IMG/VR virus record: IMGVR_UViG_2671181094_000003
Source of the DNA: a virus
Taxonomy: Duplodnaviria; Heunggongvirae; Uroviricota; Caudoviricetes
Direction: 5' to 3' (one strand)
DNA length: 17,049 bases
The translations under genes were made by a program, and so were the position numbers. This document shows positions 12,348 to 17,049 of the stretch, in pieces. A model generated the notes under the pieces. It was given only the letters and a program-made list of their open reading frames with translations, made no database searches and had not been told where the DNA came from. Numbering within the stretch: the stretch's first letter is position 1; every line of letters starts with the position of its first letter.

Positions 12348-13658
12348 TTAAATCCGAAGTGATGTGCCTCTTCCGGTCGGTTTGACAATAGGGAATTGCT
12401 TAACGATGAAATAACCTCCGGCATCATTCGGGTGATCATTGCCAGATTTTTTATCAGGCTCCCCCTTCTCATCCCAGACCTGTTGCTCCAGAGATTCGGC
12501 ATATAACGGGCAACGCTTCACATTAACTTTATAGCGACGCTCACCATTGGCATTGCAGAACATTGCATTCATTGAGTTAACGCGATCTTTTACTGGCGGG
12601 TTCGAGCTGTTCACCACAACGTTAAAACCAGCCTGCTTAAGCTGGGCTATATCCGTCGTACTTGCGTTACTTGATTTTCTGGAATCCCCGGAAGCATCTG
12701 GATAAATATAAATTTCCCTCACTTTCCGGTAATCATTCCCATCATACAGCCAGAAGCGTTCTTTAATGATGCGGATCATATCCGGCGTATCGTAGGCATT
12801 GATGATTTCAGTTACCGCACATGGAAGCCCCAAACGCAGCACATGGACGATTCCCGCCATCTTTCCAACGTTAAAATCCATCCCAATATAAATCGGCTCC
12901 CCTGGCTGCTCCACTTCTTCGCAATTATTCAGTTTCCGGTCAAACTGATGGTAAACAGTACCACTTGTCAGGTTAGTAAACTGTCCTCGAAGATAGGCTT
13001 TAATCAGCTCTGGAGGGTATGATTCAAGAAGCGAAGGAATGTAATCTGCTGGCAGGTTCTTTTCATTATCGAAAGTAGATGCCTGCACCAGACCATACAG
13101 TGAGGCCAGCTCTGTTTTTTCACGCACGGCTTTAACAAACTGCTCGTAGACAAATTTGAATCCTTCCGGCGTGGTTGTAACGTCAATACCGTTGCGAAGT
13201 CCATCAATCTTATAACGCATACGTGCAATTATCTTGCGCCACGCCGTTCTGGCTTTTTCCTTCGGCAAAATGTCCAGTTCATCCACCAACGCATTACCAA
13301 TTTTGAAACCGACGATCGTTTGTGGCTTCTCCATCGATCTGCAGATAGTGGTTCCCCGATACTGGCGTCCGTAATAAAAGTGAACCTCTTTATTTCCCTC
13401 ATTAATTTTTACGTTCAATCCCCAGTCAGCAGCAACTTCTTCCACTGTAGGGTAAAAAATATCGCGAATTTGGGGATACGTTGGCGCAAAATATCCCTGA
13501 TTTATACCTGGATGCTCCCAAATCCCCTTGCATATGCCGCCACACCCAACCCATGTTTTGCCCGAGCCAAAACCAGCAATATAGGCTTTAAATTTATGGG
13601 GCATTGAAAGAAATCGCGCCTGAGGCACATTAAGCGTCGGAGAGATCATCTTCATCAC
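12348..13658 (-). CDS. Terminase large subunit, about 435 aa
   Basis: Walker A-like GFGSGKTW near the N-terminus. Position between the small terminase and portal. Start is one of three clustered ATGs (13658/13655/13649) just after an AAGGAG SD, overlapping the small-terminase 3' end. Confidence 0.9.
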   Translation of the reverse strand: MMKMISPTLNVPQARFLSMPHKFKAYIAGFGSGKTWVGCGGICKGIWEHPGINQGYFAPTYPQIRDIFYPTVEEVAADWGLNVKINEGNKEVHFYYGRQYRGTTICRSMEKPQTIVGFKIGNALVDELDILPKEKARTAWRKIIARMRYKIDGLRNGIDVTTTPEGFKFVYEQFVKAVREKTELASLYGLVQASTFDNEKNLPADYIPSLLESYPPELIKAYLRGQFTNLTSGTVYHQFDRKLNNCEEVEQPGEPIYIGMDFNVGKMAGIVHVLRLGLPCAVTEIINAYDTPDMIRIIKERFWLYDGNDYRKVREIYIYPDASGDSRKSSNASTTDIAQLKQAGFNVVVNSSNPPVKDRVNSMNAMFCNANGERRYKVNVKRCPLYAESLEQQVWDEKGEPDKKSGNDHPNDAGGYFIVKQFPIVKPTGRGTSLRI

Positions 13659-14724
13659 TCCTTACTCTGGCATCAACCACATTAATTTTGATCGCCACAG
13701 GCTGGGGATGTTCATTATCTTCCACCGTTTCGATCTCTTTGCGCAGCTTCTGGTTTTCCATTCTGCGCCGTTCAATTTCCAGTTCCTGTAGCCGCTTATC
13801 TGCACATAAAGCCCCGCCAGCAGAAAGCAAACGCAACAATTCACGCCGGGCGGCAGCCTTATCCTCCAGCAGGATCTCAACGCCGAATTTTCCGAATTTT
13901 GCCCCTGCATATAATTGCCGCGCATCCCCATCAAGCAGAGTGGTATCAGCCATATAAAGCTGTCCCGTTCCCTCACCGCAGCACTTCGGGCAGTCCGGAT
14001 TGGGTATGGCGTTATCAACAAAGCCGAGGCCTCCATATTCCGGTTCGGGTTTGCCATCTCTGGAAGCCTGCGCCGCTGCCTTGTCGAATTCTGCTATATC
14101 GCGCCACTGGTAGAGATGATTCTCGCCCCAGCAATAACGGCAGTTAACACGGCGAAATTGTGCAAGCTGATTGGGGTCGGCCAGGACAATGGCCATCAAC
14201 TGACTCACTAGTAAATCCAGGTCTGCGGTATAGCGTTTCTGGTACTGATTGCGGAAGTAGCTGATAGCGCGAAAAACCCTGGCATTTCTAAGCATACGAC
14301 TGGCGTTGCTGTTAGCTGTCGCACCTTGCCCCTCATAACCGGCTAGTCGGTACGCCTCTGTCGGCTTTTTACCCTGAGCAACAAGCATCGCAAACTTAGC
14401 CTGCTGGTCAGAAATGCCGAATTCATCGGGACAGAACGAAAATTCCTCCGCGTCGCCCTCATTCAGGCCCGCATCGAATACTGGCTTTTTTTCCTGAGAT
14501 TTTTCGTTCCGCTTTTGTGCAGTCTGCGCAGATTTTTTCTGCGCACTTTTTTGCGCAGTTTTGCGCATTTCTGTCTGCGCATTTTTCGGAGTTTTTTTGA
14601 TGTAACGACGGGCTGTTGCGTAATTCAGTCCCCTTGCTTCACACCATGCCACCGGAGATATACCGGAGCGGGTGTATTCAGCAATATACTCCTGCTGCAA
14701 CGCCCCCCAGTCCGGTCTGCTCAT
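13630..14724 (-). CDS. Terminase small subunit, unusually long (364 aa): N-terminal HTH, Lys-rich linker, Terminase_2-like core, Cys4 cluster
   Basis: The segment ISDQQAKFAMLVAQGKKPTEAYRLAGYEGQGATANSNASRMLRNARVFRAI matches the recalled small-terminase signature (Q..F…TEAY..AGY…A…LL.N..V..AI). Position is directly upstream of the large terminase. Confidence 0.75.
   Translation of the reverse strand: MSRPDWGALQQEYIAEYTRSGISPVAWCEARGLNYATARRYIKKTPKNAQTEMRKTAQKSAQKKSAQTAQKRNEKSQEKKPVFDAGLNEGDAEEFSFCPDEFGISDQQAKFAMLVAQGKKPTEAYRLAGYEGQGATANSNASRMLRNARVFRAISYFRNQYQKRYTADLDLLVSQLMAIVLADPNQLAQFRRVNCRYCWGENHLYQWRDIAEFDKAAAQASRDGKPEPEYGGLGFVDNAIPNPDCPKCCGEGTGQLYMADTTLLDGDARQLYAGAKFGKFGVEILLEDKAAARRELLRLLSAGGALCADKRLQELEIERRRMENQKLRKEIETVEDNEHPQPVAIKINVVDARVRSDEDDLSDA
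14525..14581. repeat. Five copies of the palindromic hexamer TGCGCA interleaved with T-tracts, inside the small-terminase coding region
   Basis: TGCGCA at 14525, 14540, 14552, 14562 and 14576, with T-runs of 4-7 nt between them. Encodes the low-complexity AQK-rich linker (…KTAQKSAQKKSAQTAQK…). Confidence 0.5.
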
Positions 14725-14727
14725 CAG

Positions 14728-14937
14728 TTAGTCCTGATTTTTATCCACCCTGAGTAGTTCGCGCAGAGCAAAGGCATCCCCTTTTCTGGCAAGCTTAAAC
14801 AATGCCGCTCGTAACTCGGCTTCACCTTTCGCTCTGCCCTTACGGATGGCCGCATAAAAATCTGTCATTGCTTCCCGATTTTCTTTCAGTCGGTTCAGAT
14901 CAACATCCAGAACGTCAGCGATTTGTTGTGCAGTCAT
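14728..14937 (-). CDS. Small hypothetical protein with a predicted helix-turn-helix, 69 aa from the ATG at 14937
   Basis: ORF MTAQQIADVLDVDLNRLKENREAMTDFYAAIRKGRAKGEAELRAALFKLARKGDAFALRELLRVDKNQD. Overlaps the 3' end of the upstream gene. The ORF-track start at 14979 would overlap by 65 nt. Confidence 0.45.
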   Translation of the reverse strand: MTAQQIADVLDVDLNRLKENREAMTDFYAAIRKGRAKGEAELRAALFKLARKGDAFALRELLRVDKNQD

Positions 14938-15847
14938 CCGGCACGCTGCCAGAGACTCGACTTTCGAATACGGAATCATTTGTCACCCCCATTGATATGC
15001 AGGGTGTCTTCTTCCTGTATTTTTCGTGAAGGATTTTTACTGCAGCGTTGTTCCAGGTGACCTGATGGTGAATGCGTTTATGGCTGGCACCCATCAGTGA
15101 AATTTTTACGCACGACGGCGCATACATGACGGAGTAAAAACTTTTAACGTAGGTTCCGGAATCCAGATACAGCTCGGTCATTCCGCCGCTGTTTTTCTGC
15201 GTCTGTTTCTGCCCTAACTGGACAGCACCGATCGTCATAAACAATTCACCACAGCGACCGAGATTCGTGTACGTATTCACATCCTCGTTAATGCGCCCCA
15301 TGAATGAGAACGGTCGATCAACCGAACAGATAAAGCTGTTCATTGCCTTGCGTTTCACCCACGAAGCATGGCCGCCATTGTCACCAAGAAAATCCCCGCC
15401 CTGCGACATAGCGATGGAAAGAGCAGGTATTGATTCGTAGTACGCCAGCATTTCAGAAAGGATCGCATCCAGTTTCCTTATCGGAAAATAGGCCTGGTCA
15501 TAGTTGCGATCCACCCGAAACTGGAACTCGTGATAATCATCATCGAGCTGAATGAAGTATTTACACCCGACCAGTTTTGCCAGGTCAAAACAGGCATTAC
15601 GGGCGTAAAAAATTGAGCGGCGGTCACAGAAATTATCGGCTTCGTCAAAACGACTGGCGATATCGGCTTTGGAAAACACCAGCACCTGTTCACCAAATTC
15701 AGCCATGTACTGATGCCGTGTCTTATCTTCATCATCAACAACGATAAAAATTTTCCCGGTATAGCCAGCACGACGCAACGTCCGGTAAGTCAGAACTTTG
15801 TCTGGTCGCCCGTGAGTCAGAATAAAGGCGCAAAAATCATCACGCAT
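14915..15847 (-). CDS. Hypothetical protein, ~310 aa, with GT-A glycosyltransferase-like motifs; substrate unknown
   Basis: ATG at 15847 has an AGGAGG SD and overlaps the ParB-like stop in ATGCGTGA. Motifs FILTHGR…IFIVVDDEDKT and YFIQLDDDYHE resemble the GT2 signatures (…PTYNR…VVDDGS.D, DxD). No obvious transmembrane segment. Assignment from motifs only. Confidence 0.5.
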   Translation of the reverse strand: MRDDFCAFILTHGRPDKVLTYRTLRRAGYTGKIFIVVDDEDKTRHQYMAEFGEQVLVFSKADIASRFDEADNFCDRRSIFYARNACFDLAKLVGCKYFIQLDDDYHEFQFRVDRNYDQAYFPIRKLDAILSEMLAYYESIPALSIAMSQGGDFLGDNGGHASWVKRKAMNSFICSVDRPFSFMGRINEDVNTYTNLGRCGELFMTIGAVQLGQKQTQKNSGGMTELYLDSGTYVKSFYSVMYAPSCVKISLMGASHKRIHHQVTWNNAAVKILHEKYRKKTPCISMGVTNDSVFESRVSGSVPDDCTTNR

Positions 15848-16631
15848 ATTCCTCCTCCTCACCACCATGCATGATCTCCACCATGCGCTGCGTCATCCGG
15901 ACAAATCCATTTTCAATAGCCTGCTGATAATCAATGATCACCAGCGCCGACTCCTCGAAAAAACACTGAATTTCAGCGGGGGCGTGAGCGTAATAGTCCG
16001 CAATTCTGCTGAAATTAAACACCGTGTGACGTTCTGCCGCACACAGGAGGAATTTCTCAATATCAGGCTCAAGGGACGCCGAACGTATCCGGCTGATCAG
16101 CTCCTGAGTTTTCGTATCGTCGTACAGTTCACTGATATCCGGTTTACCGCCCGACGGCTCATAAACAGGCGTATCAATTTTCGTCGTATACGGCTCCTCC
16201 TCATTTCCTGTACCGGGCACAACATCCGTCAACAGTTCATCAATTTCTGTCGGGATGAAGCCTGTCAGGGAGACATCAAAATCAGCATTGATTAGGTCCG
16301 ACAGCTCCATCCGCAACAGATCTTCATCCCAGCCAGCATTCATCGGCAGGCGATTATCTGCCAGGCGGTACGCCTTTTTCTGCTCATCCGTCAAGCCAGA
16401 CAGAACAATGACCGGAACAGAATCCATTTTGAGCATTTCAGCCGCCATAACACGACCGTGACCCGCAATAATTTCGCCCTTTTCGTCAATCAGCACCGGA
16501 TTAGTCCAGCCGAATTGCTTAATACTTTCTACCAGTTGTGCCACCTGCTCAGGGCTGTGCGTCCTGGCGTTGTGCGCATACGGTGACAATTCTTGTAATG
16601 GGCGATAGACTATCTTTAATTTCTCGCTCAT
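15840..16631 (-). CDS. ParB-like N-terminal-domain (ParB/Srx fold) protein, 263 aa
   Basis: N-terminal region …YRPLQELSPYAHNARTHSPEQVAQLVESIKQFGWTNPVLIDEKGEIIAGHGRVMAA… has the ParB-N pattern with a G-H-G-R motif. AAGG SD 6 nt before the ATG. Confidence 0.8.
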   Translation of the reverse strand: MSEKLKIVYRPLQELSPYAHNARTHSPEQVAQLVESIKQFGWTNPVLIDEKGEIIAGHGRVMAAEMLKMDSVPVIVLSGLTDEQKKAYRLADNRLPMNAGWDEDLLRMELSDLINADFDVSLTGFIPTEIDELLTDVVPGTGNEEEPYTTKIDTPVYEPSGGKPDISELYDDTKTQELISRIRSASLEPDIEKFLLCAAERHTVFNFSRIADYYAHAPAEIQCFFEESALVIIDYQQAIENGFVRMTQRMVEIMHGGEEEEYA

Positions 16632-16640
16632 ACAGCCTTG

Positions 16641-16682
16641 CTTTATGAATAAAACGCACCCCAGCAGCCAGTGCTACTGGGG
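16641..16682 (-). terminator. Candidate stem-loop/terminator-like structure in the leader upstream of the ParB-like gene
   Basis: Minus-strand CCCCAGUAGC-ACUG-GCUGCUGGGG (10-bp stem with one G-U pair) followed by UGCGUUUUAUU. The U-tract is offset 3 nt from the stem. Confidence 0.3.
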
Positions 16683-16752
16683 ACGGAGGTGTTGCTGGTA
16701 AAGTTAGGTATTGGATCAATGAGTGAGTCAACATAATATTAAACTCACAATT

Positions 16753-17049
16753 GGTGATGCTGCCAACTTACTGATTTAGTGTATGATGGTGTTTTTGAGG
16801 TGCTCCAGTGGCTTCTGTTTCTATCAGCTGTCCCTCCTGTTCAGCTACTGACGGGGTGGTGCGTAACGGCAAAAGCACCGCCGGACATCAGCGCTATCTC
16901 TGCTCTCACTGCCGTAAAACATGGCAACTGCAGTTCACTTACACCGCTTCTCAACCCGGTACGCACCAGAAAATCATTGATATGGCCATGAATGGCGTTG
17001 GATGCCGGGCAACTGCCCGCATTATGGGCGTTGGCCTCAACACGATTTT
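16753..17049 (+). mobile_element. IS1 insertion sequence, partial copy cut by the window end; inverted relative to the left copy
   Basis: IS1 terminal repeat GGTGATGCTGCCAACTTACTGAT at 16753-16775; the downstream sequence is the reverse complement of the left copy. Confidence 0.95.
16808..17049 (+). CDS. insA: IS1 InsA, partial (C-terminus beyond the window)
   Basis: GTG start at 16808; the DNA is the reverse complement of the left-copy insA region. Confidence 0.9.

Follow-up and report, generated by a model that had tools for sequence, protein, structure and literature searches.

The window analysed here (the whole stretch of 17,049 nucleotides (nt) of IMG/VR record IMGVR_UViG_2671181094_000003, Caudoviricetes) represents the late region of a Rac-like lambdoid Escherichia coli prophage, which lies on the minus strand. 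In minus-strand order, the end of an IS1 element is followed by a gene for a ParB-like protein (gene 1), a gene for a predicted glycosyltransferase (gene 2), an open reading frame (ORF) of 83 amino acids (aa), the terminase genes terS and terL, the portal gene, and the head and tail genes (Table 1). The analysis is focused on gene 1 and gene 2, which form a pair whose constant elements are the glycosyltransferase, assigned to the TAGT family, and the C-terminal domain (CTD) of the ParB-like protein. In the NCBI annotation gene 1 is named ynaK (ParB/Srx family) and gene 2 is a "GREB1-related protein". For positions 14700-16760, ten deposited phage records show an identity of 99% or more; among 5426 complete E. 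coli genomes, 1607 match the region, and in 867 of these the match spans 80% or more of its length. The original prediction, made from the letters of the window, had placed the pair directly upstream of the packaging genes; terS and terL do follow, but the conserved 83-aa ORF intervenes before terS.

Table 1. Positions of the gene pair, its domains and motifs, and the neighbouring features in the window.
Feature	Position	Strand	Remarks
Gene 1 (E. coli name ynaK), 263-aa ParB-like protein	15840-16631	minus	ParB_N; phrog_620, E 1e-90
Predicted ParB/Srx nucleotide-binding domain, residues 1-100 of gene 1	16332-16631	minus	pLDDT ~90; Foldseek
Predicted helix pair (residues 101-136) and disordered acidic linker (137-153) of gene 1	16173-16331	minus	AF2; isoelectric point (pI) ~4.1-4.2
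CTD, residues ~146-255 of gene 1	15867-16196	minus	Unnamed domain; pLDDT ~90 for residues 160-220
Shine-Dalgarno run AGGAGGAGGA for gene 2, within the 3' end of gene 1	15850-15859	minus	
Stop/start overlap ATGCGTGA of gene 1 and gene 2	15840-15847	minus	8 nt
Gene 2, predicted 310-aa soluble GT-A glycosyltransferase, TAGT family	14915-15847	minus	PF20691; phrog_842
Codons of the invariant DDD (residues 102-104 of gene 2)	15536-15544	minus	DxD metal/nucleotide-sugar motif of GT-A enzymes
83-aa ORF	14728-14979	minus	phrog_309 (internal part of terS family), E 8e-23
terS, small terminase subunit	13630-14724	minus	Terminase_2, E 1e-8; phrog_51, E 4e-76
terL, large terminase subunit	12348-13658	minus	Terminase_6N, E 4e-33; Terminase_6C, E 3e-10
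Terminator-like hairpin	16659-16682	minus	10-bp stem with 7 GC pairs, then T-rich tail
IS1 left end (inverted repeat, then insA)	16753-17049		

Gene 2 matches the Pfam family TAGT (TET-associated glycosyltransferase, PF20691) over residues 8-222 with an E-value of 3.4e-35 and 122.3 bits, against a cut-off of 27.5, and it matches phrog_842 with an E-value of 6e-104. The homologue search gave at least 8000 clusters, all of them significant, and PF20691 is carried by all 120 listed homologues. About 60 residues are invariant in an alignment of 15 homologues (60-82% identity). The VVDD (residues 35-38) and DDD motifs, which the original prediction had read as GT2-like, are present and family-invariant. 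Moreover, for phage GT-A DNA glycosyltransferases an active-site set R...DDD...ED has been described (bioRxiv 10.1101/2023.12.21.572611), to which the invariant residues R14, D102-D104 and E188-D189 of gene 2 can be matched. The AlphaFold model of gene 2 has a mean predicted local distance difference test (pLDDT) score of 63, with a confident N-terminal half, and is reliable only for approximately residues 1-150. When this model was used with Foldseek, only GT-A enzymes were matched (SpsA, ColGalT1, SunS and K4CP), and glycogenin was also among the fold matches; a profile search of solved structures with gene 2 gave no match. No transmembrane segment was detected (maximum Kyte-Doolittle score of 1.08 over 19 residues), in line with the earlier suggestion that the protein is soluble, unlike the GtrB-type enzymes. 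By sequence, predicted fold and motifs, gene 2 can be assigned to PF20691, and the profile and structure searches place the 310-aa protein in a GT-A-fold family, not in a non-glycosyltransferase family. Within PF20691, the T2/T6 enzyme adds a second glucose to glucosyl-5-hydroxymethylcytosine (PMC13216743), and GT-A enzymes from TET/5mYOX clusters glycosylate 5-hydroxymethylcytosine (5hmC) (bioRxiv 10.1101/2023.12.21.572611). "Solitary" TAGT genes of undefined function are found in 288 of 753 glycosyltransferase-bearing phage genomes (PMC13216743), and it is to this class that gene 2 belongs.

In gene 1, Pfam detects ParB_N only (E-value of 1.2e-6, residues 23-90). The AlphaFold2 (AF2) model, which was built with 79 sequences and has a pLDDT of 78, shows helices at residues 103-134, values below 50 at residues 137-153, and a confident helical CTD at residues 160-235. 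Foldseek aligned about 140 residues of this model to Noc, ParB with CDP or CTPgS, PadC, KorB, Srx and SerK, with E-values down to 5e-7; with the whole model as the query, all matches were to the nucleotide-binding domain and none to the CTD. The ParB_N profile and Foldseek thus agree with the ParB/Srx-type N-terminal domain proposed earlier. The N-terminal 140 residues are most similar to the ParB domain of phage ParB-methyltransferase fusions (phrog_498, E-value of 2e-50; PADLOC MTase_II, E-value of 4e-38), and except for this methyltransferase-type ParB domain neither protein is listed by PADLOC as a defence component. Residues N21, R23 and S36 are present, and Box II reads G57-H-G-R60 versus GERR in canonical ParB; across 96 family members, the conservation of G57 and N93 is 90% or higher.

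The original prediction would have been contradicted by a ParB-like protein that is a known partition component, and the searches do not identify gene 1 as one. The score of gene 1 against the partition ParB model TIGR00180 is 38.4 bits versus a cut-off of 58.45, no helix-turn-helix (HTH) was recognised by Pfam or in the AF2 model, which shows only the helix pair after the nucleotide-binding domain, no ParA gene was found in the prophage neighbourhood, and the N-terminus lacks the LG[KR]GL motif. As judged from sequence and model, gene 1 shares the nucleotide-binding fold of ParB without being a partition protein.

The pair extends to phages of Lactobacillus, Nocardia and Porphyromonas and to the haloarchaeal virus HHTV-2, where the identity is 27-47%, and it occurs in virulent phages as well. 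The distant partner proteins (those of Lactobacillus phages jlb1 and c5, Nocardia phage NTR1, a Porphyromonas phage and HHTV-2) have the conserved CTD in common, with the motifs Y148-T-x-K-x3-P155-x-Y157-E-P, F194-L, A-A-x-R201-H202, Y214-A-H, E226-x-S-A-L-V-I-I-D234 and A238-I-x2-G242. Residues Y148, P155 and Y157, at the edge of the disordered linker, are 98-100% conserved, and within the fused proteins the CTD is much better conserved than the ParB domain. Pfam has no family for this domain of about 100 aa, and a CTD profile run against solved structures gave only a spurious repeat-summed match to designed armadillo proteins.

Some proteins of about 130 aa consist of the CTD alone. In Vibrio phages of 191 kb, the TAGT gene is immediately preceded by a gene for a bare CTD without ParB. 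The CTD profile matched 1405 representative clusters among 1.84 billion proteins. Among the best 150 representatives, 91 have the arrangement ParB_N+CTD (one with two ParB_N), 30 are bare CTDs, and 29 have other, truncated or unrecognised N-termini. None of the 150 is a CTD-glycosyltransferase fusion; a single protein with TAGT, ParB_N and CTD looks like a gene-calling fusion and was not counted as a true one. Among the 29, protein P0407 has a GmrSD_N domain (DUF262, ParB/Srx-related) fused to the CTD, and at least 18 other representatives carry N-terminal domains of 100 aa or more that match neither Pfam nor the ParB_N profile.

The pairing was followed from both sides. With the TAGT protein as the query, 80 IMG/VR loci were fetched, and all of them show the order ParB-CTD, TAGT, 83-aa ORF, terS. 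When 80 viral loci were fetched with the CTD alone, TAGT was directly downstream in 78, and the remaining two contigs end after the CTD, so that the co-occurrence of the pair is conserved in all 80 loci by glycosyltransferase and in 78 of 78 informative loci by partner. Tandem CTD-TAGT-CTD-TAGT arrangements occur in loci L091 (6844-10241, with a radical-SAM gene in the second pair) and L125 (6715-9225), and each glycosyltransferase paralogue there has its own CTD. No CTD was found near a T4-like TAGT gene. Because the ParB part can be missing while TAGT always adjoins the CTD, the CTD, not the ParB part, is the invariant partner of this TAGT clade, and the pairing is obligate. The pairing of a ParB-like protein with a glycosyltransferase, as originally described, is therefore conserved, but its constant element is the CTD of gene 1, and the ParB part may be absent.

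The junction of the two genes was as described before: they overlap in ATGCGTGA, and an AGGAGG Shine-Dalgarno sequence for the second gene lies inside the first. On the minus strand the gene 1 ORF ends in ...GAGGAGGAGGAATATGCGTGA, reading GAG GAG GAG GAA TAT GCG TGA; the gene 2 ATG (15847-15845) is inside ATGCGTGA, and AGGAGGAGGA sits 3-6 nt upstream of it. The longest gene 2 ORF opens at an ATG at 15868 and every homologue begins with MRDDF; the 310-aa start at 15847 was preferred because the homologues and the NCBI annotation agree on it. When the projected TAGT start was compared with the upstream stop at 80 independent junctions, the distance was -8 nt in 39 cases and -11 nt in 23 (62 of 80 together). 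It lies within -11 to +22 nt at 75 of the junctions, and five junctions hold one inserted gene. Because the -8/-11 nt junction recurs over these independent junctions, the coupling goes beyond chance.

The genes around the pair differ between its two forms. ParB_N-fused pairs lie at most three genes from a large terminase gene of one of three unrelated families (Terminase_6N, 10 ORFs; Terminase_3, 8; GpA, 3; 17 non-redundant loci), and the named phages have it in an equivalent place; in Nocardia phage NTR1 the pair directly precedes terL, with no terS annotated. Stand-alone CTD-TAGT pairs adjoin genes for DNA polymerase A, beta clamp, DnaB, primase, RecA and DNA methylases. Other genes that interrupt or flank the pair encode radical-SAM enzymes, a class-I methyltransferase and phosphatase-cytidylyl/adenylyl-transferase fusions (TagD/RfaE type), which are typical of hypermodification clusters and nucleotide-sugar supply. 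The fusions of a histidine- or HAD-phosphatase with a TagD/RfaE-type domain lie between or next to the CTD and TAGT genes in L153 (1478-2470), L161, L165 and L090 (9442-10170), and they are possible makers of an unusual nucleotide-activated donor. As a separate observation, the ParB-TAGT-83-aa-terS block is joined to different large terminases; since many of the 80 TAGT-fetched loci have no match to the terL of the window, a mosaic junction can be placed inside or just after terS.

The pair was compared with several known systems. A subclass of phage thymine dioxygenases requires a neighbouring ParB-like protein, specifically on double-stranded DNA (dsDNA), with cognate-specific pairing (O'Toole et al., PNAS 2026, PMC13229309), and it has been suggested that DNA-modifying enzymes can be guided by ParB domains (Iyer 2013, as cited in PMC13229309). 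As in the 5mYOX176/ParB176 system, a ParB-like gene is found here beside the gene of a putative DNA-modifying enzyme, often near terminase genes. The AF2 model of gene 1, set beside the published description of ParB176, shows the same succession of a nucleotide-binding domain, a short structured segment, an unstructured linker and a CTD, without an HTH; N21, R23, S36 and R60 of gene 1 parallel N14, R16, S29 and R56 of ParB176. As modelled, gene 1 resembles the 5mYOX-activating ParBs in architecture, but it is paired with a different enzyme: the partner here is a predicted GT-A glycosyltransferase, always TAGT, and no 2-oxoglutarate dioxygenase was found. It is also different that the CTD alone can be the partner here, and that partner dependence was measured for 5mYOX176, whereas for the present pair we infer it.

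With the T2/T6 beta-glucosyl-HMC-alpha-glucosyltransferase (HMC, hydroxymethylcytosine) and the TET/5mYOX-linked TAGT enzymes (Pyle et al. 2024; PMC13216743), gene 2 has in common the Pfam family, the predicted GT-A fold, the DxD-type motifs, solubility and a viral origin. However, gene 2 is only 22-24% identical to T4-like TAGT homologues, no alpha- or beta-glucosyltransferase, dCMP hydroxymethylase or TET/JBP gene accompanies it, and the T4-type enzyme is without the CTD partner gene that is obligate in this clade. The PHROG label "beta-glucosyl-HMC-alpha-glucosyltransferase" was rejected as a literal function for gene 2, which lies in a lambdoid prophage without an alpha-glucosyltransferase, a dCMP hydroxymethylase or a hydroxymethylcytosine pathway; the label is inherited from the family.

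The ParB_N-DNA methyltransferase fusions (Kaljevic et al. 2025, PMC12704722), which are closest to the nucleotide-binding domain of gene 1, likewise join a ParB fold with a DNA-modifying activity in prophages. In these proteins the enzyme is part of the fusion and transfers methyl groups, whereas here the ParB domain is joined to an adaptor, a gene of its own, translationally coupled, encodes the enzyme, and glycosyl transfer is predicted. T4 alpha-glucosyltransferase, which works with the gp45 sliding clamp (PMC13216743), offers another likeness, that of a DNA glycosyltransferase tied to a DNA-encircling clamp, and the stand-alone CTD-TAGT pairs adjoin beta-clamp and polymerase genes; the T4 enzyme differs in its GT-B fold, in having no adaptor gene, and in its 5hmC acceptor, which is made before replication. 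The NCBI label of gene 2 also points to GREB1, and phage GT-A DNA glycosyltransferases match the trypanosome base-J glucosyltransferase (JGT) structurally (bioRxiv 10.1101/2023.12.21.572611). JGT and GREB1 are eukaryotic; JGT needs 5-hydroxymethyluracil (5hmU) made by JBP, and GREB1 is reported to act on protein. GtrB-type enzymes, in contrast to gene 2, are membrane-anchored GT2 enzymes with GtrA and GtrC neighbours; gene 2 is predicted to be soluble, falls in PF20691 and has no such neighbours in L001 and L092.

The explanation that we favour, giving it about an even chance, is that the pair is a two-component, ParB-assisted DNA glycosyltransferase that sugars replicated phage DNA and thereby protects it. 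The two gene products would be subunits of one enzyme, made late and in fixed proportion through translational coupling, with gene 2 as the catalytic subunit that uses a nucleotide-activated sugar. The acidic, helical CTD would bind, activate or complete the glycosyltransferase, and the flexible acidic linker would tether it to the ParB/Srx domain, which is of the type fused to phage DNA methyltransferases and which may load the complex onto dsDNA as a clamp gated by nucleoside triphosphate or as a DNA-opening factor. Replicated phage DNA would be glycosylated just before or during packaging and would so be shielded from host nucleases; glycosylation of their DNA is a main way for phages to escape restriction, CRISPR and DNA-glycosylase defences. 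It is in temperate phages that the ParB/Srx domain would bring the complex to dsDNA late in infection; for lytic phages, proximity to the replisome may serve this purpose, in the manner of T4 alpha-glucosyltransferase and its clamp. We infer each of four elements of this explanation: the physical interaction, DNA as the acceptor, the timing and the protection of the DNA. The family precedent and the constant DNA-enzyme neighbours speak for DNA as the target, and the absence of a known acceptor weakens it.

Several observations weigh against this explanation, and most of them concern the acceptor. No TET/JBP dioxygenase or hydroxymethylase was found in the annotated E. coli prophage (L001, L092), in the complete 31.8-kb phage c5 (by annotation, and by Pfam to E = 1 for the ten longest of the ORFs left unassigned), in the surrounding 8 kb of three metagenomic loci (L088, L090 and L091; precomputed Pfam), or among the 25 most frequent families in each of three neighbour censuses with 340 neighbouring ORFs in total, from which a rare TET/JBP neighbour could escape. 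The contextual hallmark of PF20691, a linked acceptor-making enzyme, is thus absent from the surroundings of gene 2. The known TAGT and GT-A DNA glycosyltransferases require 5hmC, 5hmU or glucosyl-hydroxymethylcytosine; we know of no glycosyltransferase that glycosylates canonical DNA bases and, to our knowledge, all understood phage DNA glycosylation begins from a hydroxymethylated pyrimidine. PF20691 also includes a protein glycosyltransferase, the eukaryotic GREB1. On the side of the partner, the CTD is acidic (pI 4.5) and would not itself bind DNA, and the stand-alone form has no DNA-binding module at all. Clamp cycling by gene 1 is uncertain, because its Box II is without the catalytic Glu of GERR. 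It must also be considered that the C-terminal third of the gene 2 model is of low confidence.

In a more far-reaching, precursor-free form of DNA glycosylation, the CTD-TAGT pair, with the ParB clamp here, would sugar a canonical or host-methylated base, or a DNA end, in dsDNA after replication and with no hydroxymethylated precursor. We consider this unlikely, while still giving it a real chance. Of the roles proposed in the original prediction, DNA modification is the best supported, protein modification and a packaging accessory function being kept as rivals.

One rival is protein glycosylation, for which the lack of acceptor-making enzymes in the genomes and neighbourhoods scanned speaks, and we regard it as rather unlikely. 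The target would be the CTD's own Y148-T-x-K-x3-P-x-Y157-E-P-S/T-G motif, in a glycogenin-like manner, or a terminase, portal or replisome protein. The near-invariance of Y148, P155 and Y157 beside the disordered linker would suit a protein target, as would the presence of a separate CTD for every glycosyltransferase paralogue and the acidic nature of the CTD, which does not have the appearance of a DNA-binding domain. The fold matches include GT-A protein glycosyltransferases as well as glycogenin, and the eukaryotic relative GREB1 glycosylates protein. However, the constant neighbours of the pair are terminases, polymerases, clamps and methylases, not structural proteins, the N-terminal fusion partner has the fold of a DNA clamp, which fusions with DNA methyltransferases contain as well, and all characterised viral PF20691 members act on DNA. 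A second rival is classical TAGT action on 5hmC or 5hmU (or on a first sugar already attached to them), the modified base being made by a dioxygenase or hydroxymethylase that is too divergent for recognition or whose gene is at another place in the genome. Such an activity would match that of the characterised family members, thousands of 5mYOX-like contigs are without TET/JBP annotation (PMC13229309), and the neighbour censuses covered only the 25 commonest families; moreover, among the 50 ORFs of phage c5, nearly all of them assignable, one of 208 aa has no family match. We nevertheless judge it quite unlikely, given that phage c5 has no dioxygenase or thymidylate-synthase homologue to E = 1, that the E. 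coli prophage is without such an enzyme, and that ParB-dependent 5mYOX clusters are reported with kinases and amino-acid transferases, not with glycosyltransferases.

In many unrelated phages the pair is followed at once by terS and terL, and in NTR1, where no terS is annotated, directly by terL; such a position would fit a packaging accessory, in which the ParB-like protein recognises or prepares pac or cos, or aids the terminase as HNH proteins do, and gene 2 is structural or regulatory. This seems to us very unlikely: about a third to a half of the family is without the ParB domain and is found in replication modules, at a distance from terminases, catalysis is indicated by the DxD motif together with about 60 further invariant residues, the terminase families vary while the pair is constant, and no DNA-sequence-reading domain was found in gene 1. 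Even less credible, to the point of being nearly negligible, is a function in prophage or plasmid partition (ParB) or in GtrB-type O-antigen serotype conversion. Database labels such as "chromosome (plasmid) partitioning protein" suggest the former, and phages often carry O-antigen glucosyltransferases. A partition system was rejected owing to the lack of ParA, an HTH and a ParA-binding motif, the TIGR00180 score below the cut-off and the occurrence of the pair in virulent phages, and a GtrB-like enzyme because gene 2 has no membrane segment, belongs to another Pfam family and has no gtrA or gtrC neighbours.

The original prediction had stated that the module could not be mapped to a described system. 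In the literature on ParB with TAGT, GREB1, HHTV-2 or DNA glycosyltransferases we found neither the CTD nor its obligate pairing with TAGT described, although ParB-like and terminase neighbours of phage glycosyltransferases are mentioned in passing (bioRxiv 10.1101/2023.12.21.572611). That part of the statement stands for the pair itself; on the other hand, TAGT is a named DNA glycosyltransferase family, and a ParB-dependent modifier is already known (PMC13229309). What the analysis adds is an unnamed domain of about 100 aa defined as the obligate partner of a glycosyltransferase and, if the favoured explanation holds, an extension of ParB-fold activation of DNA-modifying enzymes from dioxygenases to glycosyltransferases. 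It is important to mention that a glycosyltransferase without acceptor-making enzymes is nevertheless conserved, at the 27-47% identity given above, from E. coli prophages to an archaeal virus. Such a module implies either a new acceptor chemistry or a non-DNA target of the family, and either outcome would address the 2026 question on the role of the many "solitary TAGT" genes. If the precursor-free form were true, it would be a new kind of DNA modification; approximately a sixth to a third of the E. coli strains sequenced would have it, as would viruses that infect haloarchaea and members of at least four bacterial phyla. The module is tractable in E. coli, where the genes are native and occur in hundreds of complete genomes, and only two small ORFs are involved.

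Some features of the surrounding region can be added. The terminator-like hairpin sits 28 nt upstream of the gene 1 ATG and is probably the terminator of an upstream moron gene; because it precedes gene 1, the gene pair would need read-through (late, antiterminated) transcription. The IS1 insertion lies 121 bp upstream of the gene 1 start, at a place where the relatives L001 and L092 have trkG and a lysis cassette, and it splits the gene pair from the late promoter region. In locus L001 (13144-13932), PGAP calls ynaK a partial pseudogene (13675-13932), yet an intact 263-aa ORF is found there that is 100% identical to the window protein; the call probably stems from the K-12 ynaK reference, which is truncated.

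The 83-aa ORF overlaps the last 65 nt of gene 2 (14915-14979) in another frame. The gene 2 protein of the window has a 22-aa C-terminal extension (310 aa versus about 288 aa in relatives), which overlaps the start of this ORF, and NCBI annotates the ORF in a shorter form of 69 aa. The 83-aa ORF accompanies ParB-TAGT-terS in every enterobacterial locus whose contig extends that far, and it is 60-66% identical among relatives where terS is only 38-56% identical. Within terS (14517-14581), five TGCGCA palindromes were observed in 57 bp (14525-14581), with a spacing of 10-15 bp and preceded by a TGTGCA; TGCGCA occurs 12 times in the whole window versus 7.6 expected. A cluster of 4-6 copies per 80 bp is present at the equivalent place in 52 of 80 related loci, some of them with a terS that is about 40% identical. 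This cluster is a candidate pac site or TerS-binding array, coding constraint (AQK repeats in TerS) being an alternative.

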